From a virus (Duplodnaviria; Caudoviricetes), in the IMG/VR virus record IMGVR_UViG_3300021426_000073, positions 32,001-96,000 of that record: a stretch of DNA of 64,000 nt; one strand, given 5' to 3'. Below are positions 9,637 through 27,972 of this stretch, one piece after another. The notes below the pieces were generated by a model, which was not told where the DNA came from, did not search any database, and saw nothing but the letters and a program-made list of their open reading frames with translations. The position numbers were made by a program, and so were the translations under genes. Positions within the stretch are counted from its first letter, which is position 1, and every line of letters starts with the position of its first letter.

Positions 9637-9933
9637 ATGAGTATGATTATTGTTTTATTAACTATGTTTGCTTCTTTAACAACTTTAGTTACAGAAGGAG
9701 TTAAGAAAATTTTAGATGAATTAAAGATTAAATATTCTTCAAATATTGTAGCCACCCTCTGTGGGCTTGTTATTGGCACTGTAGGCACACTTTTATATTG
9801 TTATTATAAAAATATACCATTGGATACTAAAAACATGATTACGGCTATATTATGTGGCTTAGCAAGTGCGTTAGGTGCAATGGTTGGTTACGATAAAATC
9901 ATTCAGACTCTTAAGCAACTCGGAAAGGAGTGA
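9637..9933 (+). CDS. Holin-like protein with three TM segments
   Basis: GAGGA RBS before ATG 9637; three hydrophobic helices, C-terminal GYDKIIQTLKQ; precedes endolysin. Confidence 0.65.
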   Translation: MSMIIVLLTMFASLTTLVTEGVKKILDELKIKYSSNIVATLCGLVIGTVGTLLYCYYKNIPLDTKNMITAILCGLASALGAMVGYDKIIQTLKQLGKE

Positions 9934-10703
9934 TTAATATGACTCAAATTGGTCACGCAAGCATAGATGAAAATGGTCGTGCTTGTTACGGAAAAGCTGG
10001 GGATCAGAACGGTCGTGAAGTATTAATTCAAAATTGGTACTCTCACCCATGGCATACAGTAATAAGACCTATTAATTCTACTACTGCTAAAAAGATTGCA
10101 TATACAATGAAAGCAATTTGCAATAATAACAATATCGGCTATGACCAAACACAAAGAAAAACTCTTTATGATTTGGCTAGCAAAGTTAATTGGGATATTT
10201 CTAAAATCAAAACGCCTTGCGAAACTGACTGCTCTGCTGCTGTATGCGTATGTGTAAATGCTGCTGGAATAAAAGTTTCACCTTTAATGTATACAGGCAA
10301 TGAATTAGAAATACTCAAAGGTACTGGAAAATTCACAATATTAAAAGATGTTAAATATACTAAATCTCCTGACTATTTAAAATCAGGAGATATTTTATTG
10401 GCTAATGGACATACTGCTATCGTTGTAAGCAATGGCTCTAAAGTAAAGGAAGTTATTGTAGCTAAGCATAATCCTACTAAGTTTGATGCAAAGTTCAATA
10501 AACAATTTACTGTTATTAAAGATGCATATATTAGAGATGGTGCTGGAAAACATTTTATAGCATATAACCTTTTACACAAAGGAACGAAGGTTAAATGCTA
10601 TGGCAAGTATGATGTTAGTTCTAAATATGCATGGCTTTTTGTTGAAGCCGAAATTAACGGTACTGTAATAAACGGATACGTAATAAAAAATAAACTCAAA
10701 TAG
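9930..10703 (+). CDS. Endolysin 1: NlpC/P60-CHAP-like peptidoglycan hydrolase with C-terminal SH3-like domain
   Basis: Catalytic-type motifs ETDCSA and GDILL..GHTAIV; C-terminal YIRDGAG...VKCYG SH3b-like segment. Confidence 0.75.
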   Translation: MINMTQIGHASIDENGRACYGKAGDQNGREVLIQNWYSHPWHTVIRPINSTTAKKIAYTMKAICNNNNIGYDQTQRKTLYDLASKVNWDISKIKTPCETDCSAAVCVCVNAAGIKVSPLMYTGNELEILKGTGKFTILKDVKYTKSPDYLKSGDILLANGHTAIVVSNGSKVKEVIVAKHNPTKFDAKFNKQFTVIKDAYIRDGAGKHFIAYNLLHKGTKVKCYGKYDVSSKYAWLFVEAEINGTVINGYVIKNKLK

Positions 10704-10714
10704 TGGAGGTTTAT

Positions 10715-11398
10715 ATGGCAAAAAATATATCCAATAACGGAATAGATTTTATTGCCTCTTTCGAAGGTTGTAGGTTGTCAGCATATGATGACCTACAGCC
10801 TAATGTTACTTTGACAAATGGAACTAAAGTAAGAGGCACATTAACAATAGGCATAGGTCACATAGGTAAAGTTGATGGTAAACCTATCGTATGGTCTACA
10901 AAAATAACTAAAGAAAAGGCATATGCAATTTTTAAAAATGACATAGGTTCAAGAGTATCACAATTAAACAATATGTTAAGAGTATCTGTAACTCAAAATA
11001 TGTTTGATGCTCTACTCTCCTATGCATATAATTGTGGCTTTGAAAATCAGCATATGGCAAAAGCTCTTTATTATATTAACAATGGAGATTTTAGAAGAGC
11101 TGCACTTGAGCTTAAAAATGGAACTAATACAAGTAAAGGAATTGTATTAGGTGGCTTAACAAGAAGACGTGAAGCAGAATATCAGTTATTTTCAAAGAAT
11201 ATGCAGTATAAGATTATAACAACTAAAGACGGAGTTAACCTTCGAGAGAAGCCTGCACAGTCTACGAAAATACTTAAGAAATATAAAAAGGATACAAAAC
11301 TAACTATTACCGAGATCAGAACTGTACTAGACCGTAAGTACGGTAAAGTAAAAGGTACTGAAAACTGGGTAAGAATGAAATACACAAAGATTATTTAG
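10715..11398 (+). CDS. Endolysin 2: GH24 phage lysozyme with SH3b domain
   Basis: FEGCRLSAYDD...TIGIGH, FDALLSYAYNCG, GLTRRREAE motifs; C-terminal GVNLREKP...WVR. GGAGG RBS before ATG 10715. Confidence 0.85.
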   Translation: MAKNISNNGIDFIASFEGCRLSAYDDLQPNVTLTNGTKVRGTLTIGIGHIGKVDGKPIVWSTKITKEKAYAIFKNDIGSRVSQLNNMLRVSVTQNMFDALLSYAYNCGFENQHMAKALYYINNGDFRRAALELKNGTNTSKGIVLGGLTRRREAEYQLFSKNMQYKIITTKDGVNLREKPAQSTKILKKYKKDTKLTITEIRTVLDRKYGKVKGTENWVRMKYTKII

Positions 11399-11407: not shown

Positions 11408-14400
11408 ATGAGCGATATTTATGTAATAGTTGAAAATGAAGATGCTAGCATAACTGATGCTGATTTGATTTCCTCTGGAGATGTTAATGCAGTAAAGGCA
11501 CATTTTACTTTTACTGAAAATTGGGATGAATATCCTATCAAGACAATGTTTGTATACTCTATTACAAAAGCTGAAGAAAATAAAATAGGTACTGATTTTA
11601 TCGGAATAGATTCTGAAGGTATTGCCATTATTCCTAAAGAAACATTGTCAAGAGAAGGAAGATTATTTTTGTGCGTTATTGGTCAAAAAACTGATAATGA
11701 AGATGTATTAACCTCTACTAGAGTTACATTAAAAATTCGTAAAGGTTTTGAAATAGAAATAGAGGACGAAGATGATGATTTTTTAAGCAGATTACTTCCT
11801 GCTGGCGGAGAACAAGGAGAATTTTTAGTAAAGAACTCTGATAATGATTTTGATTATGGATGGGGAAAACCTGACGTAATTTTTGATACAGAAATGTCTG
11901 ACGAAAGTGAACACGGTGTTCAAAATAAAGTAATCAAGGCTTATGTAGATAGTATGGCTAGTGGTGTTTCGTTAACAGTATTTACAATAAATCCTTTCGG
12001 AACTGGTACTACCGTTACTTGTAATAAAACATATGAGGAGTTATCTACACTTATAGAAAATAATACATTTGTAGGCGTAGTAAAGTCAGAAACACCAACT
12101 GGTGAATATTGCTTTATGGCTATAGATGAAATCGTTACATCAGCTGGAACAAAGTTATTTTACGCATACTCGCTTAAAGGCGATACAAAATATAAATGCG
12201 TGATAACTACTACTTCAAGTTCTATGTCTGCACAATGGACTGAAATACCTAGTGGTGATGAATACACAGCAGGCGATAATATTGATATTACTAACAATGT
12301 AATATCAGCAGATATTGTTGAGTCTATTGTAACATTTACTGTTGAAAGTACAATGACTACTCCACCATATAGAGTAAGTTGTGATACACCTTACAGTGAA
12401 ATTATGGAAAGATATAACGCCAACAAATTAAAAGTACAAGCATATATACACGAAGGAAACAATGTATTTTCATACAAAGCACCTATGACATATATTTATT
12501 ATGGTGGTGGAGATACAAAATTCTACTTTGAATATTTAGACGGAGACAATACAGTAGAATGGGAAGTTGTTAAAGCTTCAGAAAATAATGAAAACTATAC
12601 AGTTTCTAAAACTATACATTCATATAATTATACTGCTGGAGATGGTATCCGTATTAATCAGAGAGAAGTTAGCGTAAAAGCACCTGATACATTTAATGTT
12701 GATGTTACTGATTTTACAGAGTATACATTTAACGATCAGGCTTCTATGTATGCTGCGTATGGATTTACTATTAACCAATTAAATAGAATTAATTCAAATA
12801 ATAAAATAGATACTTTGGTTGCATTGGCAACAGAAGGAACGGAAACTACAGATGATATTACTTGTGCTGTTACTGGCTTTAATTATGAAAGCGAGGAAGA
12901 TACAGAAATTGCAAATCATCACACAGACTTTTATAAAATATATTTTGAGTATATTAATACTGTTTATGAGTTAATGGTTGCTGTTTCTTATACAAATGAT
13001 GAAGCTGATAATTACAAAGTAAAACTTGCAGAAAAATCAGTAGGCGATATCTATGCGTTAAGAAAATACTACGGTAACGAAAACATAAACCTTGGCAATA
13101 ACAATGGAGTTCCTGCTAATACGTTTGATACTGGTGCAATATGGAACGAAGCTATTGGTGTAGGTAATTCTATAACTGGACAATACAATAGTGCTATTGG
13201 TAATAACAATAATATTTCTGGTACTTATAATAATATTACTGGCTATGGATTATATGTAAACGGTCAATTTAACGTAGCATTCGGTCCGATAATGCCAGAA
13301 GCTAAAAAATTACAAGGTATGTGTAACCTTGTAACTGCTTACGGAAATGATGTTAGCGGTAATGAGAATGCTGTGTTCGGCAACAATAATAAAGTTCGTG
13401 GCGATGCACATTTAATTGCTGGTCACGGACATGACGTGCAAGGTTATAACAACCTTGTTACAGGCGAATATTCAACTGTAACTGGTACGGATAATGCTGT
13501 TTTTGGTATTAATTATGGAACAATTCAAGGCAATAGCAATATCGTAAATGGATATTATACATATATCAAAGAAAACAGCAACCATAATATCGTAGGTGGT
13601 TCTTATCATACAATAACAGGTGGTAATAACTTAGTCGCAGGCGAACAAACTTCAAACGATAGTTTTACATTCCCTGATGATGAAGAAGCAACAACATTTG
13701 ACCATATTAACGGCTACGACAATATTTATTCTGGATTTATGGGTTCTATTACTGGAAGATATAACATTTTAACCGCTTCATACGGAAAAATATTAGGTGA
13801 CCAAAACCTTGTTATGGGCGAACATCACGCCGTTAAAGGCGGAAACAATATCTTGACTGGTTCTGGCGGAGATGGTGGATTCGTAGGTTCTAATAATATT
13901 GCAGTATTAGGTGGATACAGAAGTGTTATTAATAATGTTGAATATTCAAATATTCTCTCTGGTTATACAACTGCTGAAAATTTACGTTACGCAGCTTTAA
14001 ATGCTTTCTACTCACGTTTTCAAAATGCTCAATATATAAACGCAAATGGCTATGGATTAAAATTCTCTGGCACATTAGATGAAAACGATAACTATACAAA
14101 CCCTATTGGTTTAACTATCATTGGACAATGGAACGAAGATGGCAATGATAGAAACGATTATGTGTTTGTAGTTGGTGGAGGTACTGGTGATGATATCAAC
14201 AGAAAGAATGTATTTACAATTACTAAAAATGGTCAAGTAACTTGCACTATTAACAACAAAAAACATACTGTATTTGGCTCTTCTTGTGTAACAGATACAC
14301 TTCCACAAACTGGTCAAGAAGATACTCTTTATGTATTAACTTCATCTACCCAAAGTTTTACTTTAAATGGTGAATTACCAGATGAATTTAAAACACAATC

Positions 14401-15853
14401 CGCTTATGAAACTTGGAATGGTGGTGGCAAAGCAATGATGTTATGCGTTGATACGAACGCAACTGCTTACGCTACTCAGTTTGGTATCAAATACATATTG
14501 TTAGAAGGCATCGTTGTAGAACCATTTGCTCAAACAAGTGGTGGTCAAGATATCTACTATAAGGTTACGCAAGTAGGTAGCACACCAGTTCAGTATACTT
14601 ACAGTACAGTAAGTAATCAATGGACTGCTTCTCCTATTACTGGTGTATCTGTTGGAGATTATTTATATGCAGTAGGTAGTGCAACTGGTATTACGCCAAG
14701 AGATACTGATATTGTTATTGATGATTTAAACGGAAGTATTAGTTCTGATATTGGTTTGGAATGGATGTCTGGAAATGATACAAGTAATCAGTGGGATATC
14801 GAATACTCTCCTAGTCAATATATAACTCATACATACACTTATGCTGATAATGTTTATGAGATTTATACTGGCAATTCTCATGATTCAGCAAGTGGCTTAT
14901 ATATATACAAAAACAATGCTTATATTCAGATAGCTACTGGTGGCAGTGGTGGTTCGTATGTTGCTGGCGATAATATTGATATTACAGGCAATGTTATTTC
15001 AGCTGATATTATAGAGCCTATTGCAACATTTACATTAACTCCTACTGGAACAACACCAGCATATACAGTATCTTGTGATACTACATATTCAGAATTAATT
15101 TCAAGATATAATTCTGATAAATTAAAAACACAACTAATCGTTGAGGGTAACAATGGTGAAACTGTATTAAATATGGATCGCTTTGAATATAGAAGCGGAG
15201 TTGCTAAGTTCTATTTTGAATATACAGAAGAAGATTATTTATATGTATATGAGATAACTAAAACTGGAAATCCTAGTGCTGACACTTATAGTTACAATAA
15301 GATTAGTACAAGAGTGCAGAAAAAACTTACTCCTGGAACTAATATTACTATTGACAATACTGACCCTGATAATCCAGTAATTAATGCTACTGGAGGAGGT
15401 GGAGGAACTACTTACACAGCTGGTGTCGGTATTGATATTGATAGTAATAATGCAATTAATACAGTTAGAATAAAAGTAGCTCACTTAGATGTTACAGGAA
15501 CACCTAGTATAAACTATACATGGACTGAAATAAACAATTTATTAGGTTCTTATACTGCTTATGGTTCTGCCACATGCTATTTATGGTATGGACATACTGG
15601 AGCGGTATTTGATACAGCTATAGGTTCTTATGATATTAGTAACAACGGCATATCTATACATTTTACATGTATATATGGCAATACTATTGAATATAGAAGC
15701 TATTATCTTTCATCGGAAAATGTATTCACTATGACTCAAAGAACAGTTACTGATTATCAAAAGAAACTCACAGCAGGCACAGGTATTTCTATAGACCCAA
15801 CTACAAACACAATTTCACTAGACTTACCACAAGCTGAAGGAGGTGGATTCTAA
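11408..15853 (+). CDS. Large tail fibre/adhesin (BppU-like N-terminus, YadA-like beta-roll repeats, duplicated domains)
   Basis: N-terminal baseplate-attachment-like domain; recurrent YTAGxxIxI motifs; G/N-rich beta-roll repeats at about 13.1-14.0 kb; an approximately 120-aa domain present twice. Confidence 0.75.
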   Translation: MSDIYVIVENEDASITDADLISSGDVNAVKAHFTFTENWDEYPIKTMFVYSITKAEENKIGTDFIGIDSEGIAIIPKETLSREGRLFLCVIGQKTDNEDVLTSTRVTLKIRKGFEIEIEDEDDDFLSRLLPAGGEQGEFLVKNSDNDFDYGWGKPDVIFDTEMSDESEHGVQNKVIKAYVDSMASGVSLTVFTINPFGTGTTVTCNKTYEELSTLIENNTFVGVVKSETPTGEYCFMAIDEIVTSAGTKLFYAYSLKGDTKYKCVITTTSSSMSAQWTEIPSGDEYTAGDNIDITNNVISADIVESIVTFTVESTMTTPPYRVSCDTPYSEIMERYNANKLKVQAYIHEGNNVFSYKAPMTYIYYGGGDTKFYFEYLDGDNTVEWEVVKASENNENYTVSKTIHSYNYTAGDGIRINQREVSVKAPDTFNVDVTDFTEYTFNDQASMYAAYGFTINQLNRINSNNKIDTLVALATEGTETTDDITCAVTGFNYESEEDTEIANHHTDFYKIYFEYINTVYELMVAVSYTNDEADNYKVKLAEKSVGDIYALRKYYGNENINLGNNNGVPANTFDTGAIWNEAIGVGNSITGQYNSAIGNNNNISGTYNNITGYGLYVNGQFNVAFGPIMPEAKKLQGMCNLVTAYGNDVSGNENAVFGNNNKVRGDAHLIAGHGHDVQGYNNLVTGEYSTVTGTDNAVFGINYGTIQGNSNIVNGYYTYIKENSNHNIVGGSYHTITGGNNLVAGEQTSNDSFTFPDDEEATTFDHINGYDNIYSGFMGSITGRYNILTASYGKILGDQNLVMGEHHAVKGGNNILTGSGGDGGFVGSNNIAVLGGYRSVINNVEYSNILSGYTTAENLRYAALNAFYSRFQNAQYINANGYGLKFSGTLDENDNYTNPIGLTIIGQWNEDGNDRNDYVFVVGGGTGDDINRKNVFTITKNGQVTCTINNKKHTVFGSSCVTDTLPQTGQEDTLYVLTSSTQSFTLNGELPDEFKTQSAYETWNGGGKAMMLCVDTNATAYATQFGIKYILLEGIVVEPFAQTSGGQDIYYKVTQVGSTPVQYTYSTVSNQWTASPITGVSVGDYLYAVGSATGITPRDTDIVIDDLNGSISSDIGLEWMSGNDTSNQWDIEYSPSQYITHTYTYADNVYEIYTGNSHDSASGLYIYKNNAYIQIATGGSGGSYVAGDNIDITGNVISADIIEPIATFTLTPTGTTPAYTVSCDTTYSELISRYNSDKLKTQLIVEGNNGETVLNMDRFEYRSGVAKFYFEYTEEDYLYVYEITKTGNPSADTYSYNKISTRVQKKLTPGTNITIDNTDPDNPVINATGGGGGTTYTAGVGIDIDSNNAINTVRIKVAHLDVTGTPSINYTWTEINNLLGSYTAYGSATCYLWYGHTGAVFDTAIGSYDISNNGISIHFTCIYGNTIEYRSYYLSSENVFTMTQRTVTDYQKKLTAGTGISIDPTTNTISLDLPQAEGGGF

Positions 15854-17004: not shown

Positions 17005-18036
17005 ATGGATATTATCACATTATCTTTGGCTAAAAAATATACTGCTAATACTGCTGATGCTTTAGGTGCGGTAAAAGGTGCTCCTTGTAAAATAAAAAAC
17101 ATAGAATCTACATCTGAAGGAAACACTGTTACTTTTGAATGGAAAGGTGATAGCGGACAAATTCAGACACGTACAATGATTGTTAAAAATGGTACTGATG
17201 GTGAACAAGGTGCTTCTATTGCTTCCGCTGTTGTTACACAAGATGGTAATTTGATATTAACATTAACTGATGGTACAGTGGTCGACTGTGGCGTAGTTAC
17301 AGGTCAAGCACAATTGCAACAACCATTAACTGCTACAGTTGAAATCGGTACAGTAACAAACGGAAAAACATATGCCAAAGGAACAAATCTGGAACAAATT
17401 ATAAGAGATATGCTTATTAAATATTTACCGCCTGCTATTTCTTTAACTACTACTCCTGCTACTAAACTATACGACATTGTAACAGATAGTGTTGCTACTA
17501 TTCTTTTAAAGGCAGCAGTAACGAAAAAGACAAACAATGTAACAAAAGTTTCGTTTTACGTAGGAGATACGTTGGTTAATGAAGTAACTTCTGGTGTTGC
17601 TTCAGGCGGAAATTTTCAATTCCAATACACACCAGATACTGCCATTAGAACAGATGTAACGTTTAAGGCTACTGCTACTGATGGCAAACAAACAAGCACT
17701 TCTTCTTATGCGATTAAATTTGTAGGAAGAAGTTATTATGGTATTTGTGATGCTTCAGTATCTGACCCAGATGAAACTACTATTAAGAGTGGCTCTAATG
17801 TATTAAAGGATACTAGAAACTTGACATATTCTGGTATTACTACAAGTTGGGGTAAAGTATTTTATGCATATCCAAAGAGTTTTGGTGCATTAACATATAT
17901 TAAAGATGAAGTAAACAATATTAACTATTGGGACAGTTTTCAACGCAGCGATGTAACGATAGATGGTGTTCCATGTTATTGTTATACATTAATAGAACCA
18001 ACTGGTGCAACAGATAATCAGATAGTATTTAAATAA
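17005..18036 (+). CDS. Ig-like/beta-rich virion fibre protein
   Basis: T-rich beta strands; C-terminal domain (YYG...FYAYPKSFG) paralogous to that of the next gene. Confidence 0.6.
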   Translation: MDIITLSLAKKYTANTADALGAVKGAPCKIKNIESTSEGNTVTFEWKGDSGQIQTRTMIVKNGTDGEQGASIASAVVTQDGNLILTLTDGTVVDCGVVTGQAQLQQPLTATVEIGTVTNGKTYAKGTNLEQIIRDMLIKYLPPAISLTTTPATKLYDIVTDSVATILLKAAVTKKTNNVTKVSFYVGDTLVNEVTSGVASGGNFQFQYTPDTAIRTDVTFKATATDGKQTSTSSYAIKFVGRSYYGICDASVSDPDETTIKSGSNVLKDTRNLTYSGITTSWGKVFYAYPKSFGALTYIKDEVNNINYWDSFQRSDVTIDGVPCYCYTLIEPTGATDNQIVFK

Positions 18037-18050
18037 GGAGGAAGATAAAA

Positions 18051-19619
18051 ATGGCTATTAGTTTAATGGACAATCTTGATATTAGAAAATCTACTCCTAA
18101 TGTTAAGAGAGATATGTTTGAAACTATTGCTGATATGAAAGACTATAATGAAAATTATCTTCCTCAAGTATTTATTTCAACTTGTGTTGAAGATGGTTGC
18201 ATTTATATTTTTAATAAGGGCAATATAGTGGATGACACAACTGGCAAATGGAGAAAGTTCGAGGGTGGAACTGCCGATTTGCTAAACTATTACAACAAAA
18301 CAGAAGTCGATACACTTCTTGATGATAAAGTAGATAAAGAAACTGGAAAAGGTCTATCTACTAATGATTATGACGATGATGAAAAAGGACAAGTACAACA
18401 GAACAAAGAAGATATTGCAACTCTAAACGGAGATGCAACTGTTACTGGTTCTGTTGATAGCAAAGTAGCACAAGGCGTACAAGATGCTAAAAACTACACA
18501 GATGAGCAAATCGCACTTATAAATATTGACGAAGCTATTAAGTGTGATACTATGCCTACATATGATAGTGCTACAGATAAAATAACTTATATTAAAGACG
18601 GCACTTCTACTACAATAGATGCTGATGCAATATGGTTCTACTATGAAGATAATGATAAACTCATGCAGTCAATTCTTATTGATGGTGAATGGACTACTAT
18701 TGTTTCAGCTGGTAGTGTTAATTTTGCTGATTATGTATCAAAAACAAATGATGTTGTAAGTACATATACAGGCGATGAAGTTATTACTTCTAAAGTTCCT
18801 GACATTGCTGCAATGAAGGCTTTGCAGGCTATTGTAGAAACAGAACTTGATGATAAGGTTAGTATTTCACAAGGTTCTACAAATGCAGATAAGGCTGTTA
18901 TTACTGATGAAAACGGTGATATTACTCTTGCTCCACTATCTACTCTTGGTGGAGATGCAGAAAACATAACTTACACTAACACAGACTTTCCTACATACAC
19001 AGATGTAGATAAGGCACTTGATGCTATATTGGCAAAACTTTACTATGTAGAACCAGCAATTACAAGTTTCACTTCTACTCCATCGACTCTCACATATGAG
19101 AACGGTGCAGTTATTACTGGTGGCGTTGTATTTAACTGGACATACAATAAAGATATGACAACTCAGACTCTTACTGACTGTACGCTTGCTGATGAAACAG
19201 TAAGAACGGCTACATATGAAAATGATATTTCAGCAAGCAAAACATTTACTCTTAATTGTGGTGATGGTGAAAAGACTGCTAGTAAGTCAATAGCATTCCA
19301 GTTTATGAACAAAGTATACTGGGGTGTTTCAGCAGATCAAGATACTTATACTGATGCATGGATATTAGGTTTGAGCGGAAGTAAGTTAGCAACTAATGCA
19401 AAAGGCAGTTACAACTTTACTGCTGGTACTGGTCAGTATTGCTACTTCGCTCTTCCAACATCAATGAGTATTACGGTTAAAGTAAATGGATTTGATACAG
19501 ACCTTGATACAGTTGTTGCAAGTAAATCATTCCAGAATGCGAGTGGCTACACAACAACATATAAAATAGTTAGATTACATCAGCCAAGTCTTGGTACTTT
19601 GACTGCTGTAGTTAGTTAG
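18051..19619 (+). CDS. Virion fibre/decoration protein
   Basis: KVDKETGKGLSTNDY fibre motif; C-terminal Ig-like domain (VYWG...CYFALP). Confidence 0.65.
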   Translation: MAISLMDNLDIRKSTPNVKRDMFETIADMKDYNENYLPQVFISTCVEDGCIYIFNKGNIVDDTTGKWRKFEGGTADLLNYYNKTEVDTLLDDKVDKETGKGLSTNDYDDDEKGQVQQNKEDIATLNGDATVTGSVDSKVAQGVQDAKNYTDEQIALINIDEAIKCDTMPTYDSATDKITYIKDGTSTTIDADAIWFYYEDNDKLMQSILIDGEWTTIVSAGSVNFADYVSKTNDVVSTYTGDEVITSKVPDIAAMKALQAIVETELDDKVSISQGSTNADKAVITDENGDITLAPLSTLGGDAENITYTNTDFPTYTDVDKALDAILAKLYYVEPAITSFTSTPSTLTYENGAVITGGVVFNWTYNKDMTTQTLTDCTLADETVRTATYENDISASKTFTLNCGDGEKTASKSIAFQFMNKVYWGVSADQDTYTDAWILGLSGSKLATNAKGSYNFTAGTGQYCYFALPTSMSITVKVNGFDTDLDTVVASKSFQNASGYTTTYKIVRLHQPSLGTLTAVVS

Positions 19620-19629
19620 GAGGTTATAA

Positions 19630-21207
19630 ATGGCAATTAGATTAGCCGATACTGCTCGTCCTAATAACTATGTTGATCCTGAGCATCTGGGAACTTTCCC
19701 AGTTGCTTATGCAGAGGACGTGTGGTTTGCGGATGGTACAAGATTAAGTGAAAAAACTTTCGAGGGTCAGAGTATTCAGAAAGAGGAATTACCTCTTGCG
19801 ACTGCTATTGAAGAAGGAAATATATATCAGTATATTGGTGCTGATGGTACATATAAAAATGGTCGCTTTTATATTTGTAAGTATGTGGGTAGTTCTAATT
19901 ATTCGTGGTCAGAAATACCAATGGTTACTAATCCTGTTGTATATAGTGAAACTATTCCGTTGGTAGCCGGATATAACAGTGGTGCAATAGTATGTTACAC
20001 TGGCGAGAATAGTGGTGATTTCACAAAAGGACATTTATATCAAAAGAATGAAACATCTTATACTTATTATTATTGGACATTTTATAGAGATTTAGAAAAA
20101 ACACAGCCATACATATTCTATACAAGAGAAGAAACATTAGCTAATGGTGTAAATGTATATCAAGCTGATCCTACAACTGGAGAAGGCAATATATCACTTG
20201 TTGGTTCTATTACTAATTATCAAGAGTGGAGCTTTTTTGTAAATAGTTCAAGTACTGTTCAGTATTTCTATCCCGAAGCTAATACTTCAAAAAATAGAAA
20301 TGTTGCAGAGGGTAATTGGATTGATATAGGTGGCGGTAATGCGGTTGGTGGAATTATAGATGTAGAAACTCTGCCAACATCTGATATTAAAAATACATTT
20401 TATAGAACTAAAGAAGATGTTGGTGGAAAAACTAGAACAATAGAAGTGAGTCTTACGTCTGCAATGTCTTTTGATGAAAAGGTTGCATATCTTTCACAAT
20501 ACTTTATAGTACATCCAGACCAAGCTAATAATCGTATAGATATAGAAACATATCCTGATTTATATATGACCAGAGCATCTTGGACGAAGCATTATTCTGT
20601 TCCTGAAGAAACTTTAGCTTTAATGTATTTAAATACAGAAAGAATTGAACTTAATTGGGATGCAGATAATACTGGTACTCCACAGACAGAAACCAGTATG
20701 GTAATGCCTTTACTGTTTTCTTCTTCTCATTTTCCTAGTGCAGTGTATTATGCTGGAGATGAAATAAATCAGACTACTGAACGTATGGCAACATACGAAG
20801 ATATACCAAAAGAATTTATAGGCACACAAGCTGAATGGGATTCTCTTACCGCTGATGAGAAAGCACAATATATCATTGTTAATATCACTGATGATACTAA
20901 CACCAACGGAAAATTTATTGATATTACTTCACAATGTACCGTAGTTCTTGGTACAGCAAAGGTTATGAAGTGTGGACAGATTGTTGTGGTAAATGGCTAT
21001 GCACCTAAAGTGAGTGGTTCTAATGGCTTTAGAGAGGTTATAACGAGAGTCCCTGTACCAATAAGTAATGGTACTTCTAATACAGCAATTGGCAATGCAT
21101 TGCATACGTCTACTCAGAGTGTGAGGGTAACAGATTCTATACTGAGGGTGTACTGTTCAACATCCACTGAAACAAATTATAGTATTATGTACTTGACAGA
21201 TGAATAA
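19630..21207 (+). CDS. Tail fibre / receptor-binding protein
   Basis: Repeated LPxA...IYQYIG modules, FIGTQAEWDSL motif, small C-terminal beta domain. Confidence 0.6.
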   Translation: MAIRLADTARPNNYVDPEHLGTFPVAYAEDVWFADGTRLSEKTFEGQSIQKEELPLATAIEEGNIYQYIGADGTYKNGRFYICKYVGSSNYSWSEIPMVTNPVVYSETIPLVAGYNSGAIVCYTGENSGDFTKGHLYQKNETSYTYYYWTFYRDLEKTQPYIFYTREETLANGVNVYQADPTTGEGNISLVGSITNYQEWSFFVNSSSTVQYFYPEANTSKNRNVAEGNWIDIGGGNAVGGIIDVETLPTSDIKNTFYRTKEDVGGKTRTIEVSLTSAMSFDEKVAYLSQYFIVHPDQANNRIDIETYPDLYMTRASWTKHYSVPEETLALMYLNTERIELNWDADNTGTPQTETSMVMPLLFSSSHFPSAVYYAGDEINQTTERMATYEDIPKEFIGTQAEWDSLTADEKAQYIIVNITDDTNTNGKFIDITSQCTVVLGTAKVMKCGQIVVVNGYAPKVSGSNGFREVITRVPVPISNGTSNTAIGNALHTSTQSVRVTDSILRVYCSTSTETNYSIMYLTDE

Positions 21208-21221
21208 TCGGAGGTGAAATT

Positions 21222-22103
21222 ATGAGTGTAAATAGATATAACTCCGCAACAGGAGAACTTGAAAAAATTGCAGGTGGTACCTTATATGCGGATGCACCGA
21301 TTGGTACTATTAGTCCTTTCGGTGGTTCAGCGATCCCTAGTGGATATTTACTTTGTGATGGTACGGAGGTTCTTAAAACCGCCTACGCAGAGTTGTATGC
21401 AGTAATAGGTGATGCTTTCGGAACAGCGAGTGATAATACAAAATTTGTGTTGCCCGATTTAAGAGAGGCTACAACAAAAGGTGTTGGATTAAGCGGCAAA
21501 AGTGAAAATCATTATAGTGAAACTGGTGTTGTCCTCGGTGAGTTTATAGAGGATAGATTACAGTCACATACTCATGGTATTAGAAATGGTTTTGATGGTG
21601 CTGACCCCGATAGTGCAGAACGTGGTGATGGTAGGCATGGCTACTCTGCCAAATCAAATGATGCGTCGGGACGTACTGGTAACACTACCGAAGTTAAAGC
21701 AGTAGGTGTCAACTACATCATCAAAGCTAAACAGATTGCAATACCTGCTGACATTCAGTCAGCCATTGAAGAACAGAACTCCTACTCTACTGAGGAAACT
21801 TATACTGGCAAGAGATGGATAGATGGTAAACCGATTTATAGAAAAGTGCTTGTAAGAACAGGAAGTGCCTCTGGTACGGGTGAATTAACAATAGGAACAA
21901 TTGACAATTTTGCACAACTTGTCAATATTACAACTATAACAAATTCAAATGCTGGTAGCAACCAAGAGGTAGAATTTTATAGATATCGTGATAGTAGATT
22001 ATTGATATCAAATGGAACTGCGGCAGTCAAGATGGACAGGGTTAGTAATTACAATATTGACAAAGTAACTATGATTGTAGAATACACCAAAACTACAGAT
22101 TAA
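21222..22103 (+). CDS. Tail collar domain fibre protein
   Basis: PIGTISPFGG..IPSGYLLCDG...YAELYAVIG...FVLPDLR collar motif; C-terminal YSTEETYTGKRWIDGKPIYRK domain. Confidence 0.85.
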   Translation: MSVNRYNSATGELEKIAGGTLYADAPIGTISPFGGSAIPSGYLLCDGTEVLKTAYAELYAVIGDAFGTASDNTKFVLPDLREATTKGVGLSGKSENHYSETGVVLGEFIEDRLQSHTHGIRNGFDGADPDSAERGDGRHGYSAKSNDASGRTGNTTEVKAVGVNYIIKAKQIAIPADIQSAIEEQNSYSTEETYTGKRWIDGKPIYRKVLVRTGSASGTGELTIGTIDNFAQLVNITTITNSNAGSNQEVEFYRYRDSRLLISNGTAAVKMDRVSNYNIDKVTMIVEYTKTTD

Positions 22104-22170: not shown

Positions 22171-22407
22171 ATGTGCAAAAATATAAAACTTTGTTCTTTA
22201 ATTAAACCAGAAATAGATAGGTGTTATGAGCTATGCAACTTCACATATGATGAATCTGAATATTTTAAACTTAAAACTAAAGATAAATCTAATGTAGCTA
22301 TAGCACAAGAAATGAATGTTAGTGAAGCACAAGTTTCTAAACTTGCACGCAGAGTAAAGGATAAAATATTAAAACTAATTGAATTAGGATTATTAGATAT
22401 GGAGTGA
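22171..22407 (+). CDS. LuxR/GerE or sigma-region-4-like HTH regulator
   Basis: CNFTxDE...SNVAIAQEMNVSEAQVSKLARRVKDKI helix-turn-helix pattern. Confidence 0.7.
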   Translation: MCKNIKLCSLIKPEIDRCYELCNFTYDESEYFKLKTKDKSNVAIAQEMNVSEAQVSKLARRVKDKILKLIELGLLDME

Positions 22408-22429
22408 TGAAAGTCACTCCATTTTTTTA
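22399..22429 (+). terminator. Terminator-like hairpin after the HTH gene
   Basis: ATGGAGTGAT-GAAA-GTCACTCCAT followed by a T-run. Confidence 0.7.
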
Positions 22430-22523
22430 CAATTTTTGTATAATTTTCATAAATGAGGTGTATAAGTACACCTCATTTTTTTACTCTATACTATTACTAT
22501 AAAACAACGAAAGGTTATATGTT

Positions 22524-22904
22524 ATGGGATACGTTTATTACAATCCTAATCCTAAAGCATTGCGAGTTGGGGATTGCACAGTTCGTGCAATCTCTAAACT
22601 CTTAAGCCAAGATTGGGAAACAACATATATTCAACTTTGCTTGCAAGGGCTTGAAATGAATGATATGCCATCATCTAATAATGTTTGGGGTTCATTCCTT
22701 ATGAGCAAAGGATATCAAAGATATATTATACTAGACTCTTGCCCTAACTGTTATACGGTTAAAGATTTCTGTATTGATCATTCGACAGGAGATTATTTAC
22801 TTTGTACTGGAACGCACGTTGTTGCAGTTATGGATGGAGGAAATTACTTTGACACTTGGGATAGTGGCGATGAAGTTCCTGTGTTTTATTTTAGAAAGGA
22901 GTAA
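22524..22904 (+). CDS. Putative papain/C39-like cysteine peptidase-fold protein
   Basis: Candidate triad: GDCTVRAI (Cys), GTHVVAV (His), YFDTWDS (Asp). Confidence 0.5.
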   Translation: MGYVYYNPNPKALRVGDCTVRAISKLLSQDWETTYIQLCLQGLEMNDMPSSNNVWGSFLMSKGYQRYIILDSCPNCYTVKDFCIDHSTGDYLLCTGTHVVAVMDGGNYFDTWDSGDEVPVFYFRKE

Positions 22905-22907
22905 AAA

Positions 22908-23306
22908 ATGGCATTTAATATTCCTACAAATTACCAACAAATATATTACCCACAACCAGCACCACAAATGCCTCAGCAACAACAGAGTTGCAACATAACA
23001 TGGGTATCTGGAGAAGCTGGTGCTAAATCATATTTGGTAGCCCCTAATACTACTGTTCAACTTTGGGATAGCGAATCACAGACTATCTATTTAAAATCAG
23101 CAGATGCATCGGGTATGCCTACAATAAAGACGTTAGATTACACGATAAGAGATACTCAAGTTCCAAATCCTAGCGTGAATGTTATGGAGCGTGAAGAAAC
23201 TTCTTATGTAACAAAAGATGAATTTGATGATTTAAAAGACGAGCTAGAACAGATAAAAGATAAACTCTATTCAGAAAAAGAAAACAATAAAAGATTTAGG
23301 GGGTAA
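22908..23306 (+). CDS. Cassette protein (Q/P-rich N-terminus, WVSGEAGAKSY domain, C-terminal coiled coil)
   Basis: AAGGAG RBS; 132 aa; tightly packed in the operon. Confidence 0.75.
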   Translation: MAFNIPTNYQQIYYPQPAPQMPQQQQSCNITWVSGEAGAKSYLVAPNTTVQLWDSESQTIYLKSADASGMPTIKTLDYTIRDTQVPNPSVNVMEREETSYVTKDEFDDLKDELEQIKDKLYSEKENNKRFRG

Positions 23307-23311
23307 ATATT

Positions 23312-23515
23312 ATGGGTAATCCTTTATTTAATACTTATGGAAATAATAATATTATACAAAAATTTATGCAATTTAAAAATTCATATAACGGAGACCCTAA
23401 ACAACAAATACAACAAATGTTGAATAGCGGTCAACTAACACAAGAACAATACAATCAAGCAGTTGAAAAAGCAAATCAATTGCAGATGTTATTAAACGGA
23501 TTTAAAAATATATAG
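23312..23515 (+). CDS. Small Q/N-rich helical cassette protein
   Basis: 67 aa, MGNPLF...DPKQQIQQMLNSG motif. Confidence 0.7.
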   Translation: MGNPLFNTYGNNNIIQKFMQFKNSYNGDPKQQIQQMLNSGQLTQEQYNQAVEKANQLQMLLNGFKNI

Positions 23516-23580
23516 CATACACTAGACAAAATTCACACGATATATATTGCAATATATAAATAAATTTAAGGAGGTTCATT

Positions 23581-24375
23581 ATGGCTTTAGATGGAAATGA
23601 AGGAATGGTAATGCCAGTATCACCTATGTATGGTGGTAATGGTGGCGGATTCGGAAATGGTTTCGGAGACGGCTCTGGCTGGTGGATTTTACTTCTCTTT
23701 ATCTTATTAGGCGGTTGGAACAACGGCTTTGGCGGTAATGGAAATGGCACTCCATATGTAGTTGGTAACACTGTACAAGATGGTTTTAATCAAGCTGCTT
23801 TGACAAGTGGTATTGGCGATATTCAGAGTGCTCTTTGTAATGGTTTCGCAGGTGTAAATTCAAATGTGGCTAATGGATTTGCCCAAGCAGAAATCGCAGA
23901 TAACTCAAGACAAATTGCTAATATGCAGCAATCATTCGCAAATCAGACAGCTATGAATAGTGGCTTTAACGCTCTCCAGTCACAGCTAGCAAGTTGTTGT
24001 TGCGAATCAAGACTTGCATCAGCCAACTTACAGAATGTAATCCAGTCTGAAAATTGTGCTGACAGAAGTACTATTAGCGATGGCATAAGAGATATTCTTG
24101 TTGCTAACAACAATAATACTCAGCGTATTTTAGATCAATTATGTAATGATAAGATTGATGCTAAAAACGAGAAAATTGCTGATCTTGAGAGACAACTTAC
24201 AATGGCTAACTTATCAGCTAGTCAGAATACTCAAACACAAACACTACTTGCAGATAACTTTGCTCAAACAAGTGCTTTAGAGCAATATCTTGCACCAGTA
24301 CCTAGACCTGCATACATCGTGCAGAATCCTAATTGCTGTGCTCAGAATGTAGGCTGTGGTTGCGGTTCATACTAG
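23581..24375 (+). CDS. Gly-rich, single-TM, coiled-coil, Cys-tailed protein
   Basis: AGGAGG RBS; GGNGGGFG repeats flanking WWILLLFILL; N/Q-rich heptads; CCCE; C-terminal CCAQNVGCGCG. Confidence 0.8.
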   Translation: MALDGNEGMVMPVSPMYGGNGGGFGNGFGDGSGWWILLLFILLGGWNNGFGGNGNGTPYVVGNTVQDGFNQAALTSGIGDIQSALCNGFAGVNSNVANGFAQAEIADNSRQIANMQQSFANQTAMNSGFNALQSQLASCCCESRLASANLQNVIQSENCADRSTISDGIRDILVANNNNTQRILDQLCNDKIDAKNEKIADLERQLTMANLSASQNTQTQTLLADNFAQTSALEQYLAPVPRPAYIVQNPNCCAQNVGCGCGSY

Positions 24376-24392
24376 AAATGAGGTGATTACTT

Positions 24393-24875
24393 ATGGCTGA
24401 ATATACAAACGCTGCTATTCAATCTGTATCACCTAGTCAGCCTGTATTATTGAATACAACTATTGGCTGCCCAAAAGGATATGTTATCCATCGTGAGGGA
24501 AGTGGTATCTTAACATTAAGGGGCATTGTAAATTGTCCTAATTCATGCTTTGCAAGATACCAAGTAACATTTAATGGCAATATAGCCATACCTGAAGGTG
24601 GTACTGCTCCAGCTCCTGTTAGCGTTTCTATCGCAATTGACGGAGAACCGTTAACAACTAGTAAGGCTATTGTTACGCCAGCTGCTGCTGCAGAAGCTCC
24701 ACCATCAACAAACAACTACTTTAATGTAACGAGTACGGCTATAGTAACTGTACCTAGAGGCTGTTGCTTTAATATTTCTGTAGAGAATACAAGCGAAAGC
24801 TTAACTCCAGCTACTACTCCAGCTCCTACAATTAATGTAGCAAACGCTAACCTTGTTGTTAGCCGAATAGCGTAG
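24393..24875 (+). CDS. BclA-CTD/C1q-TNF-like jelly-roll protein
   Basis: All-beta pattern GILTLRG...YQVTFNGN...ISVENT...NANLVVSRIA resembling BclA C-terminal domains. Confidence 0.55.
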   Translation: MAEYTNAAIQSVSPSQPVLLNTTIGCPKGYVIHREGSGILTLRGIVNCPNSCFARYQVTFNGNIAIPEGGTAPAPVSVSIAIDGEPLTTSKAIVTPAAAAEAPPSTNNYFNVTSTAIVTVPRGCCFNISVENTSESLTPATTPAPTINVANANLVVSRIA

Positions 24876-24891
24876 AGAGGAGGATTTTGAT

Positions 24892-25266
24892 ATGATAGAT
24901 GCTATGGATAAATTATGCGACACTCTATACAAAGCATTAGATGAAGTATCTGAAAAACCATTAACAACTTCTTCTTTAGATAATATTTTTAAAATTGTTG
25001 GTTCAATTTATAAATTAGAGAAGATGGAGAAGAAAGATGATGGTTATTCATCAAACTCTTCTTATGCTAGAGGAAGTTCCATGAGATATGGTCAGAATAG
25101 TTACGGACGTGATTATATGCGTGGTAATTCGAACGACTATATCATGGGTACAAGCAGACATAACAAAGAAGATGTCAAAATGGAACTTTACAAATTAATG
25201 CAAGATACTGATGATGAAAATGTCAAAGATATGTTGCAGAACTTTATAAGAGAAATGGAAAGATAA
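24892..25266 (+). CDS. Cassette protein (helical ends, S/Y/R/G-rich disordered middle)
   Basis: GGAGG RBS; last gene before the terminator. Confidence 0.7.
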   Translation: MIDAMDKLCDTLYKALDEVSEKPLTTSSLDNIFKIVGSIYKLEKMEKKDDGYSSNSSYARGSSMRYGQNSYGRDYMRGNSNDYIMGTSRHNKEDVKMELYKLMQDTDDENVKDMLQNFIREMER

Positions 25267-25288
25267 ATCCTATCTGAATACTATGTCA

Positions 25289-25328
25289 AAAAGGGAGGCG
25301 TACCGAAAATGGTACGCCTCTTTATTTA
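25289..25328 (+). terminator. Terminator at the convergence of + and - transcription units
   Basis: GAGGCGTACC-GAAAAT-GGTACGCCTC with flanking A and T runs; coding strand switches here. Confidence 0.8.
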
Positions 25329-25366: not shown

Positions 25367-26419
25367 TTATTTAGTTTTTATTTTTTTCACTGACCACTTG
25401 CCCAATGTATCATATCCTACCGCTCTAACTCTAATATAATAAGTCTTTTTACGCTTTAGTTTTTTGATTGTCTTGATTGAATCAATTACATTATACGCTT
25501 TAGCCTTTTTGAAATTTTTCTTTAAAGAAATTTGAATCTGATATTTCATTGCGAAATCAACTTCGTTAAATGATACTGTTACCTTATTCCTTTTTACTTT
25601 AGCCTTGAGGTTTTTGATACCAAGATTAACTCTTGATTTTGAATTAGTTACATTAGACTGGTTTACAATATTTGTTATTGTAGATGTATTACCTACTATT
25701 GTTGTTGTAATTTTAGGCGTTTCAATTTTAGGGTAACCAACGTGTTCTACAAACCATTGATTTTCATTTATAACATAACTTGCTGCATTGAAGTTAGAAA
25801 AATTTAAAGAATTATAGTATGAATATTTTTTAATTTCTTCAGGCAGTAATGCAAATGTCCATGCAGCATTTCTTCTCCACATAAGAGAATTGTATTTGCC
25901 AGTTTCTGAATTTAATACATTACATTCTTTTACCAACTGTTCGTATTGTTTTACTTCTGTGTTATTAATAATTTGTTTTAAAAATACTAAATGTGTTAGA
26001 TAATAATTATAATAGTTTCTGTAGTCTATTGTTTTTGTAACTTTTTCGTATTGTTGATACCACTCGTTGTTTTCGTCTCTATGACCTATATAATCATAAT
26101 ATTCATATGTTTTTGAAAATGTTTCATAATTAAAATTAGTAGCTGATAAATTGTAAACACTATCGCTTGCTTTTCTTCCGTTTAATCTGATGCAATCCAA
26201 TACATCATTATACTTGCCCATCCAATTAGAAGCTTTTGTTCTAAAATCATCAGTATCATATGAATTAAAATTATCGTGTCCAATAGCTTTTAATTCATTA
26301 ATAAGTCCGTCTATTAGTCCTATTGCTACTTCCTTGTCTGTCTTTTCTTTAGCATCTACAGTATTGATTCCACTAAAACATAATATTAATACTAATAATA
26401 AACTAATTATCTTTTTCAT
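25367..26419 (-). CDS. Secreted/surface protein with C-terminal FN3-like domain (possible lysogenic conversion gene)
   Basis: Signal peptide MKKIISLLLVLILCFSGINTVDA; C-terminal YQIQIS...KKLKRKKTYYIRVRA...GKWS; adjacent to attP. Confidence 0.75.
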   Translation of the reverse strand: MKKIISLLLVLILCFSGINTVDAKEKTDKEVAIGLIDGLINELKAIGHDNFNSYDTDDFRTKASNWMGKYNDVLDCIRLNGRKASDSVYNLSATNFNYETFSKTYEYYDYIGHRDENNEWYQQYEKVTKTIDYRNYYNYYLTHLVFLKQIINNTEVKQYEQLVKECNVLNSETGKYNSLMWRRNAAWTFALLPEEIKKYSYYNSLNFSNFNAASYVINENQWFVEHVGYPKIETPKITTTIVGNTSTITNIVNQSNVTNSKSRVNLGIKNLKAKVKRNKVTVSFNEVDFAMKYQIQISLKKNFKKAKAYNVIDSIKTIKKLKRKKTYYIRVRAVGYDTLGKWSVKKIKTK

Positions 26420-26557
26420 TGTAATCACCTTCCTTTGTTTTATAATAACACTTTAAAACTACTTTGAAAAGTATTTTAAGGTATATAACAAACTATTTAT
26501 AAAAAAATAAATTCTTATATAACTTAAAATGTCTAATACATCTGCTCTCCTTTCTTA

Positions 26558-26750
26558 TATGGTTACCTTTTGGTTACTTTTTAATAATCAATTAAGTATA
26601 ATACTTGAATTTAAGCCATTTTTTTATTAGTTCTGATTTCGAATCCCACCGTCTCCGCTACTTTTCGGCTTTAAACCGTCATTTTGGGATAGTCGAAATT
26701 GGTTACTTTTGATTTTTGGGTGGTTACTTTTTCGGGTTGAGTAACCATGG
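26558..26750. mobile_element. Phage attachment site attP (core = tRNA 3' end, probably Ser) with integrase arm-type repeats
   Basis: TTCGAATCCCACCGTCTCCGC at 26638-26658 is a T-loop plus acceptor 3' strand. TGGTTAC repeats near 26560, 26571, 26700 and 26721 with an inverted GTAACCA near 26741 flank it. Phage genes lie on both sides. Confidence 0.8.
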
Positions 26751-27972
26751 ATTCAAGTTGTGTTACTAAGCTAGCTTTATAATCCATATTTCCAATATCA
26801 TAAGTATAGTAATTGTTATTTACTTCAATAGAATTGCCAAGTAAGCTTGATGCAATAAAAGTGTTTGCTCCTAAAGATTTTATATAAGAGTTAAATGTTC
26901 TTCTTAATGCGTGAATACTTTTGTTTTTCATTCCAGCTTGCTTGGTTTTTTTACGTCCGCAGCTTGAAATAGCACTACAATGTATTTTGCCGTTTTTGTT
27001 TGAAAACACATACTCTGTTAAAAATCCATATTCTTCTTCTACTGCATGAAGTCTTTCTAGCAATGTTTTGATATTATCTGTCAAAGGAAGAAATCTTATC
27101 TTATTTGTTTTGGTAGTTGATATGTAATAACAATTATTTATTCTATCTTGTTTTTCAGAACGCATAATTACTATTCTGTTTTTCTTATAATCAATATCTT
27201 CCCATTTTAATCCAGCCAATTCACCGACTCTTAATCCAGTAAGCATAGCTAACTGTACTGCATATGGTGTTATCAACTCAGGCTTGTATATATGGTCTTC
27301 TTCCAACTTATTCCATAAAGTAACAAGTTCGTTTTCTGACAATATCCTTTCTTCTGGCATCTTATAATTTTCTTTGCAAAACTTTTGAAACATCTTTATC
27401 TCTACATAATCACAAGGATTATTTTCAAGCTTATGTTTTCTTATTGCATAATTAAAAATACCATTTAACATTTGGTAGAATTGTTTGATACATTTATATG
27501 TATACTCTCCATTGGTTAGTATACTTCTTATGTGATTACCAATGTCTACCTCGGTTATAGAACGGATATCTATTTGAGATATTTCTTTGTCATTTAGAAA
27601 CCTTTTGTAATTACTTTTATATTTGATTATAGTTGCACTTGATACACCCATAGCGGTTTTGTACTCGATCCACTCTGGAAAAATTTCTTCTATATTAATA
27701 AGAAATAATTTTTCATAATGTTCGTTCAACTGCTCAATTAGTTTATCTTTAGATTTTTTCTTTATAAGTTTTCTTTTACCATCAACCATTAAATGCGTTC
27801 GCCAGAAGCCATCAGCTCCTTGCCAAATACTGTATTGATGATTCTTTACTTCCATTTTCTCCTTTACAGATGTATTAGACAATGCTATATTACACTGCTC
27901 AAGGAGTTTTTTCAAGACATCTTCTTCTATTTCAATCATGCGTATCCCCCAAAAGTCCCTAAATACATCCAA
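26671..27972 (-). CDS. int: Tyrosine integrase
   Basis: TGLRVGEL (R), TTKT (K), IHALRR (HxxR), LLGNS, terminal YY. Likely start is MIEIEE near 27939. Confidence 0.9.
   Translation of the reverse strand: MDVFRDFWGIRMIEIEEDVLKKLLEQCNIALSNTSVKEKMEVKNHQYSIWQGADGFWRTHLMVDGKRKLIKKKSKDKLIEQLNEHYEKLFLINIEEIFPEWIEYKTAMGVSSATIIKYKSNYKRFLNDKEISQIDIRSITEVDIGNHIRSILTNGEYTYKCIKQFYQMLNGIFNYAIRKHKLENNPCDYVEIKMFQKFCKENYKMPEERILSENELVTLWNKLEEDHIYKPELITPYAVQLAMLTGLRVGELAGLKWEDIDYKKNRIVIMRSEKQDRINNCYYISTTKTNKIRFLPLTDNIKTLLERLHAVEEEYGFLTEYVFSNKNGKIHCSAISSCGRKKTKQAGMKNKSIHALRRTFNSYIKSLGANTFIASSLLGNSIEVNNNYYTYDIGNMDYKASLVTQLESMVTQPEKVTTQKSKVTNFDYPKMTV

Follow-up and report, generated by a model that had tools for sequence, protein, structure and literature searches.

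The closest parallels to the locus described here come from the surface of Bacillus spores. In the exosporium nap and in the anchoring of F-ENA (PDB 7r1m, 8d02, 9h3d and 9h38), ExsFA/BxpB goes together with BclA or F-Anchor; ExsF trimers hold proline-rich leader peptides in the clefts between their subunits, and the leader of BclA is trimmed by proteolysis (PMC12357932). Further, partial likenesses are to the C39 peptidase domains of double-glycine systems (ComA, LahT150 and PCAT1), to Josephin-type deubiquitinases and bacterial ubiquitin 'clippases', to the ligands of the TNF family and Chlamydia Pgp3, and to the i-spanins (Rz) of the lambda type. We analyzed a stretch of 64,000 nucleotides (the window), which comprises bases 32001–96000 of a 112-kb phage record with direct terminal repeats (DTRs; IMG/VR record IMGVR_UViG_3300021426_000073). 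Seven plus-strand open reading frames (ORFs), g1 to g7, span positions 22171–25266 of the window, where an earlier note made from the letters (the original prediction) had placed them. They constitute a real, widespread and uncharacterized gene cassette, composed of a minimal cysteine peptidase, a leader-bearing coiled coil knotted by cysteines, an exosporium-type TNF-fold protein, three low-complexity proteins, and a dedicated regulator and terminator. This make-up suggests a new kind of phage-built assembly and not a variant of lysis, defense or virion modules.

For a survey of gene order, 80 viral contigs and 80 loci from species-representative genomes were fetched via g2, and all seven proteins were sought in the fetched loci, by tblastn first and then with iterated hidden Markov models. 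The same genes recurred in the same order in 166 fetched phage and prophage loci. Among the 107 loci with sufficient flanking sequence (4 kb or more downstream and 0.8 kb or more upstream), g1–g7 were complete and in order in 65 and g2–g7 in another 29; the order was thus the same in 94 of the 107, and few loci were partial or rearranged. Such grouping is far beyond chance. The median intergenic gaps from g2 to g7 are, in order, -1, -17, 64, 14 and 11 nt, and the cassette sometimes splits into g2-g3-g4 and g5-g6-g7. Its carrier contigs range from about 20 to 157 kb, and the hosts are mainly Lachnospiraceae, Oscillospiraceae and Ruminococcus. Complete or near-complete cassettes exist in prophages of Butyrivibrio sp. 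INlla21, Selenomonas sp. AE3005 and Eubacterium ruminantium ATCC 17233, and the isolated Butyrivibrio phage Ceridwen has g2–g6, as five 'hypothetical' genes that follow an endolysin gene and a terminator. None of the seven proteins gave anything above threshold in Pfam, NCBIfam or PADLOC, and the PADLOC defense models yielded only a chance-level match for the helix-turn-helix (HTH) protein g1. All seven match PHROGs; those of g2–g7 are families of unknown function only, and those of g1 are weakly matched transcription-regulator and sigma-factor families. The original prediction had taken the genes for a self-contained, co-conserved and uncharacterized system and proposed a synteny survey; the recurring order and the lack of a library function strongly support it. 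Literature searches found no paper on the cassette, which is among the more widespread unexplained gene sets of gut and rumen phages.

The two nearest large genes on each side of the cassette were scanned against Pfam. Upstream neighbors mostly encode endolysin domains (PG_binding_1, GH25, CHAP, ELLD, Amidase_2 and NlpC/P60), holins and tail-collar fibers, and downstream neighbors include integrases (25), SNF2 helicases (12), repressors of the Cro/CI type and Clp-type prohead proteases (5). Within 260 nt upstream of g2, 72 of 134 distinct loci have a terminator-like hairpin, as do 43 of 120 within 150 nt 3' of g7; among random background windows the figure is 56 of 820. On account of these flanking genes and bounding hairpins, we regard the cassette as an insulated cargo block, usually placed at the border between late genes and lysogeny or early genes. 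It is transcriptionally insulated and belongs to no particular virion design or replication system. In the window, the six genes from g2 onward are bounded by hairpins, as had been foreseen: a 10-bp stem followed by a run of seven T overlies the stop codon of g1 (22399..22422, plus strand), a 12-bp stem with a T-run follows at 22451..22478 (plus strand), and a symmetric, G+C-rich hairpin at 25295..25320 ends both the cassette and a converging minus-strand unit.

The gene g2 (22524..22904, plus strand; phrog_3754, E = 4e-22) encodes a stand-alone protein of 126 amino acids (aa) that, by its modeled fold, is a minimal papain-like Cys-His-Asp enzyme. C18, H98, D110 and D113 vary little or not at all across the family, and the same holds for N7, N9 and a C73-P-x-C76...C83 cluster; identity across the matches is about 60%. 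Clustering of this large family gives more than 2500 clusters at 90% identity and leaves 2288 representatives at 50% identity. Among the best 150 of these 2288, almost all are stand-alone proteins of about 90–190 residues, most of them near 125, and the few longer relatives have no transporter domain and no informative fusion. In the AF2 model (predicted local distance difference test, pLDDT, 78), C18 is located at the N-terminus of a helix, with H98 and D110/D113 on the strands that follow. A structural comparison of this model (VIA-align) returned almost only clan-CA peptidases as top matches, at Z 6–7.2, those named next at 6.3–7.2: Josephin-2 (7.2), the C39 domains of ComA and LahT150 (6.7), bacterial Josephin-type clippases (6.6), staphopains and AvrPphB. 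Because these values are tied and modest, they establish the fold and not the family.

With C39 domains g2 shares the papain-like fold, including a cysteine at a helix N-terminus and the His/Asp residues on the following strands, and the product of the neighboring gene g5 has an N-terminus whose spacing is double-glycine-like in about a third of its homologs. However, g2 has no Pfam match to PF03412 (C39) at E<1 and no fusion to an ATP-binding cassette (ABC) transporter among the best 150 of the 2288 representatives; it lacks the conserved Gln six residues before the Cys, having invariant N7 and N9 instead; and its presumed substrate is no small peptide but a coiled-coil protein of 264 residues. 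A Pfam scan recognized no transporter gene in the cassette. The Josephin-type deubiquitinases and bacterial clippases (PDB 6pgv and 9f5t) are the best single structural matches to g2 (Z 7.2 and 6.6), but their scores tie with those of several other clan-CA families, no sequence similarity exists, and the cassette has no gene for a ubiquitin-like protein. Homologs of g2 in Bacillus phage Kirov and the related Bacillus phages Izhevsk and KoopaTroopa are annotated 'putative peptidase' or 'peptidase'.

The product of g6 (24393..24875, plus strand; phrog_20016, E = 2e-37) has 160 aa, a conserved GCC motif and conserved termini (MAEY... and ...RIA), and its family comprises at least 8000 clusters at 90% identity. 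Its AF2 model (pLDDT 89) is a TNF/C1q-type jelly roll, closest to F-BclA, ExsFA/BxpB and BclA. Foldseek placed the C-terminal domain of F-BclA, ExsFA, BxpB and BclA at the top and then TNF ligands such as 4-1BBL and EDA (together at E = 1e-6 to 2e-4, TM-score up to 0.78); the short tail fiber CBD of cyanophage A-1(L), the A4 tail complex and Pgp3 are also among the matches. The sequence of g6 matched no Pfam family (PF18573 included) and had no sequence relative in PDB, and only three longer, chimeric-looking proteins were found against at least 8000 of similar length, none of them with collagen repeats. The likeness to the exosporium proteins extends beyond the fold that g6 shares with the ExsFA/BxpB-type structures (Foldseek E about 1e-6, TM-score 0.63–0.78), since g5 offers a proline-rich terminal peptide and a peptidase gene stands beside g5. 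The differences are as follows. No sequence similarity accompanies the shared fold, the cassette encodes no collagen repeat and the stalk is a coiled coil on a separate polypeptide, the proline-rich peptide of g5 is C-terminal and not N-terminal, and the cassette is carried by phages whose hosts include non-sporulating bacteria. In TNF-family ligands and Pgp3, the common features are those of g5 and g6 taken together, namely a hydrophobic anchor, a helical stalk and a TNF-fold head, whereas in the cassette stalk (g5) and head (g6) are separate, phage-borne proteins with no visible secretion signal.

The 264-aa product of g5 (23581..24375, plus strand; phrog_16490, E = 2e-34) consists, in order, of an acidic leader ending in GG, a segment rich in Gly, Asn and aromatic residues, a 13-residue hydrophobic core (WWILLLFILLGGW), a second Gly-rich segment, a helical region with a CCC motif, a proline-rich stretch (PVPRPAYIV) and a Cys-rich C-terminus. 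Among 132 homologs, the CCC motif was recognized in 123, the proline-rich tail in 107 and a terminal CC or CxC in 109. The acidic N-terminal segment of 20–30 residues contains essentially no Lys or Arg; over the 35 residues that precede the hydrophobic core, the median count is 0 for Lys/Arg and 3 for Asp/Glu. The consensus of double-glycine leaders is L-12 S-11 E-8 L-7 I-4 G-2 G-1. The N-termini of 48 of the 132 homologs read [LM][ST][PA]AD[IVF]AAVxG[NG], with G-N or G-G at -2/-1, and their spacing agrees with this consensus. Most of the others, the window copy included (MVMPVSPMYGG), are of the MPVxPMYGG type, for which the double-glycine fit is only partial. The hydrophobic core has about 13 residues, and no 19-residue window of g5 exceeds a Kyte–Doolittle value of 1.4; from the letters, spanning of the membrane by g5 is plausible. 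Searches of the ESM Atlas with g5 and g3 gave only unnamed viral clusters.

The i-spanins of the lambda type resemble g5 in combining an N-terminal hydrophobic segment with a coiled coil that bears conserved cysteines, and the genes for both often lie just after an endolysin gene. Unlike spanin systems, the cassette has no lipoprotein gene and most of its hosts have a single membrane; g5 is also larger, with Gly-rich flanks and a leader, and the phage of the window has a separate lysis block. True homologs of g5 with the same landmarks exist in Bacteroides phage C3_41T2LP and crAss-like phage cr52_1, and hhalign gave no relationship between the proteins beside them and g6 or g7. The homolog in cr52_1 (L170:3569-4492), annotated 'spike protein/glycoprotein', is interrupted by two in-frame stops when read with table 11, which would fit a recoding of stop codons in that phage. 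The gene just upstream of it was annotated as sigma factor-like by the depositors, in parallel with g1.

Three further proteins are of low complexity. The 132-aa product of g3 (22908..23306, plus strand; phrog_21718, E = 3e-28) shows in alignments a Q/P/Y-rich N-terminus, a conserved beta-rich core and a C-terminal YVTKxEFDxL helix. The gene g4 (23312..23515, plus strand; phrog_22984, E = 2e-17) encodes a Q/N-rich helical protein of 67 aa with the pattern NPLFN...F..F...GDP...SGxxSQxQxNQ. The gene g7 (24892..25266, plus strand), recognized by jackhmmer and a PHROG match, encodes 124 aa, with helical ends around a low-complexity center that is S/Y/R/G-rich and varies in length, and jackhmmer located it directly 3' of g6 in 106 of the 107 sufficiently flanked loci. 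For g3 and g7, neither Pfam nor PDB gave a relative, and the profiles of g3, g6 and g7 gave only chance-level rows against PDB sequences. Of what had been said about the individual proteins from the letters, the peptidase-like nature of g2 is borne out by its near-invariant C18, H98, D110 and D113 and its papain-like fold, the BclA-like jelly roll of g6 by its best matches, and the S/Y/R/G-rich character of g7 by its center. A description of two Q/N-rich helical proteins fits g4 but g3 only in part, since g3 is not simply helical, and in that of g5 the Gly-rich segment, the helical region and the cysteine clusters hold, with the transmembrane segment becoming less certain in view of a core of about 13 residues.

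The 78-aa product of g1 (22171..22407, plus strand) is a putative HTH protein of the sigma-70 region 4 or LuxR type. The GerE/LuxR-like HTH of the original prediction was recovered weakly, below family thresholds: g1 scores 19 bits against a cut-off of 23.5 for GerE, 15.1 against 25.7 for Sigma70_r4_2 and 22.9 against 42.9 for TIGR02937 (E = 5e-5), and its matches to PHROG families, several of them for sigma factors and regulators, have E = 4e-4 to 2e-3. No other gene stands between g1 and the insulating terminator, and g1 is directly upstream of g2 in 71 of the 107 loci with enough flank. Between the two plus-strand hairpins the sequence contains a AATTTTTGTATAAT motif (22431..22444, plus strand) with a TATAAT box and no good -35 element, which is possibly an activator-dependent promoter or a regulator site; the hairpin at 22451..22478, directly after it, is a candidate 5' leader attenuator. 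Of 132 loci, 16 have a related motif, TTTT[TC][GA]TANA, 5' of g2; its frequency in background windows is 1.8%. A conserved motif of the AATTTTTGTA(T/G)A type followed by a 12-bp hairpin and a T-run precedes g2 in the window (22431-22486) and in relatives (L003, L040, L045, L051, L092, L098, L099, L124 and L141), a layout that resembles a promoter running straight into an attenuator. In some relatives (L003, at 7907-8035, L010, L016, L098 and L141), a small ORF of 30–45 aa (M-x-D-I-S...L..IM....C....A.L.L) with a good ribosome-binding site lies between the terminator and g2. It was considered as an eighth cassette gene and set aside, being present in a subset only and absent from the window.

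In the window, the cassette comes after a run of tail and fiber genes, the last of which encodes a tail-collar protein (21222-22103; Pfam Collar). The tail-fiber block at 17005-22103 (plus strand; proteins of 343, 522, 525 and 293 aa) is common to DTR phages of about 110 kb (loci L177-L186), at 66–86% nucleotide identity in blastn pieces and 82–89% amino-acid identity for the 522-aa fiber protein. Outside this block there is no match at the DNA level between the phage of the window and those phages, and the block is a clear case of mosaic exchange of a host-range module. In the fiber-sharing phages, the same junction holds a holin-like gene, an M15 endolysin gene, two genes for small membrane proteins and an integrase gene; the genome of the window has no homolog of the holin-like, M15 endolysin or integrase gene found there. 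Searches for g2, g5 and g6 in three complete fiber-sharing phages of about 110 kb found none of them, with the window's own genome as positive control, and the cassette is therefore not tied to this set of fibers. The use of these phages as near-isogenic, cassette-free controls was rejected, their DNA match being limited to the fiber block.

Our tentative reading, to which we assign a probability of about 0.35, is that the cassette is a portable, self-regulated accessory operon of gut and rumen Bacillota phages through which, late in infection, a leader-processed and hydrophobically anchored coiled coil is joined to a TNF-fold protein in a complex at the host membrane. Its products would assemble into a single protein structure on the inner side of the membrane of the infected cell, either late in infection or following induction. 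The small sigma-region-4-like DNA binder g1, which ends the upstream unit, would control a promoter or attenuator just 5' of g2. The stand-alone papain-like peptidase g2 would remove the acidic, double-glycine-like leader of g5, and the Gly/Trp-flanked hydrophobic segment thus exposed would insert into the membrane or cluster there. The coiled-coil stalk of g5, probably trimeric, would be held by the cysteine clusters, and its Pro/Cys-rich tail would dock in a TNF-fold trimer of g6, as the leaders of BclA and F-Anchor do in ExsF/BxpB. The low-complexity proteins g3, g4 and g7 may be assembly partners or a matrix. When the translations were read by eye, with no predictor, none of g2–g7 showed an N-terminal signal peptide, so that assembly in the cytoplasm is the simplest assumption. 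The phage might gain by excluding other phages, by controlling release or by conditioning the cell debris. If exclusion or release control is what it provides, the cassette bears on phage competition in the gut, and if the product is a new membrane-anchored scaffold, the docking principle of BclA and ExsF extends beyond spores. A cultivable pair for direct tests exists in phage Ceridwen and Butyrivibrio fibrisolvens DSM 3071.

A more specific form of this proposal, which we hold with considerable doubt, is that the product would be an exosporium-like layer or condensate made by the phage at the membrane of non-sporulating bacteria, that is, a previously undescribed supramolecular structure encoded by a mobile phage operon. 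In it, the leader-cleaved, hydrophobically anchored and cysteine-knotted coiled coil would be docked to the ExsF/BclA-like TNF-fold trimer within prion-like proteins, namely the Q/P/Y-rich and the S/Y/R/G-rich ones. Such a layer would alter the fate of the infected cell or its remains, for example by excluding phages or controlling release.

Several observations weigh against the membrane-complex reading. An alignment of g2 with five C39 domains from transporters of the PCAT type in host genomes reached an hhalign probability of only 0.2%. In Tsamsa-like Bacillus phages, Geobacillus phage GBK2 and the Lak megaphages, g2 occurs alone, without g3–g7, and its substrate therefore need not be g5. 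Conversely, the g5 homologs of C3_41T2LP and cr52_1 keep a leader-like N-terminus and have no g2 or g6 nearby. As a transmembrane helix, the hydrophobic core of g5 would be short, and the docking of g5 to g6 is proposed by analogy with the exosporium proteins. Finally, since the fiber-sharing phages are unrelated to that of the window elsewhere in their DNA, they do not demonstrate that the cassette is dispensable in an isogenic background.

The same evidence can be read in other ways. An accessory virion part, in which g5 and g6 form a trimeric coiled-coil fiber with a TNF-like binding knob on the head or tail, and g2, g3, g4 and g7 are factors for maturation or assembly, is possible but rather unlikely. 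TNF-like knobs do occur in phage receptor-binding proteins, and the matches of g6 to the cyanophage A-1(L) and A4 tail structures belong here, as do the labels 'viral fiber' or 'spike' given by depositors to g5 homologs, the lack of visible signal peptides, and neighbors that include Clp-type prohead proteases in five cases downstream and tail-collar fibers in four upstream. However, the cassette travels as one block among phages that differ widely in size and build, terminators set it off, it usually lies 3' of lysis genes, and phages with the same fiber block lack it; moreover, a hydrophobic segment and three low-complexity proteins are untypical of fibers. The position beside lysis genes, together with the lack of an exporter, would suit a bacteriocin-like toxin released by lysis, with g5 as the leader-bearing, Gly-rich and membrane-active component activated by g2 and the other products as immunity or carrier factors. 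The double-glycine-like leader, the Gly-rich hydrophobic segment after it and the C-terminal cysteines of g5 are as such a toxin would have them, and the fold of g2 resembles the C39 domains that process bacteriocins. We nevertheless consider a toxin improbable: after the presumed cleavage g5 would still have about 240 residues, mostly of coiled coil, the cassette has no immunity-like membrane protein, an apparently virulent phage also carries its genes (PMC7372960), and the constant pairing with a TNF-fold protein is left unexplained. The original prediction had offered a membrane-inserting fiber or toxin matured by a protease as one of two hypotheses; the peptidase fold of g2, the leader of g5 and the ExsF/BclA-like trimer fold of g6 speak for that proposal in part, and the separation of g2 from C39 by sequence, the phages with g2 alone and the g5 homologs without g2 speak against it.

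If g2 were instead a deconjugase or clippase of the Josephin or deubiquitinase type, acting on a host or defense protein in host takeover or counter-defense, the rest of the cassette would do something separate. Josephin-2 and the bacterial clippases are its top or near-top fold matches, and g2 homologs with 33–38% identity stand by themselves in Bacillus phage Kirov (L168), GBK2 (L167) and Lak megaphages, among early genes in the inspected regions of Kirov and GBK2. Yet Z values of 6–7 fail to separate Josephin from C39, staphopain and AvrPphB, and the reading frame of g2 runs up to or into that of g3 (median gap -1 nt), with g2–g7 kept together in about 90% of loci. We regard this explanation as quite improbable. 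The other hypothesis of the original prediction was a spore-surface or protective-shell module of sporulating lysogens, linked with spore-forming hosts. Such an exosporium-like module would accord with the fold of g6, closest to ExsFA/BxpB and BclA, with its Cys-rich partner proteins and with the weak GerE match of g1, but as a general function it is contradicted, and we give it hardly any weight. Four host genomes that carry the cassette had no match to Spo0A_C or SpoIVA, with a Bacillus subtilis control that scores, and the hosts include Selenomonas, Butyrivibrio and Eubacterium ruminantium. Ceridwen, in which g2–g6 are present, infects the non-sporulating Butyrivibrio fibrisolvens; its growth was seen to be lytic only and its authors judged it virulent (PMC7372960).

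The phage of the window has a lysis block of its own at 9282-11398 (plus strand), amid large tail and fiber genes and not 3' of them. It consists of two genes for holin-like small membrane proteins (9282-9632 and 9616-9933), one for an ELLD endolysin-like protein (9930-10703) and one for a Phage_lysozyme protein (10703-11398), all on the plus strand. Since the phage keeps this block, the idea that the cassette had replaced the lysis genes was rejected. On the 3' side of the cassette, the converging minus-strand unit consists of the genes for a secreted 353-aa protein (25367-26428) and a tyrosine integrase (26671-27972). The 353-aa protein has an N-terminal signal sequence and a weak C-terminal match to fibronectin type III, and its gene, which adjoins the integrase gene and converges on the cassette terminator, looks like a typical gene of the lysogenic-conversion type. 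Directly after the lysis block, a gene at 11408-15853 (plus strand) encodes a protein of 1481 aa whose residues 646-715 match the 'grass antifreeze beta roll' (LbR_Ice_bind); the protein is probably a beta-helical fiber or a depolymerase-like tail protein.

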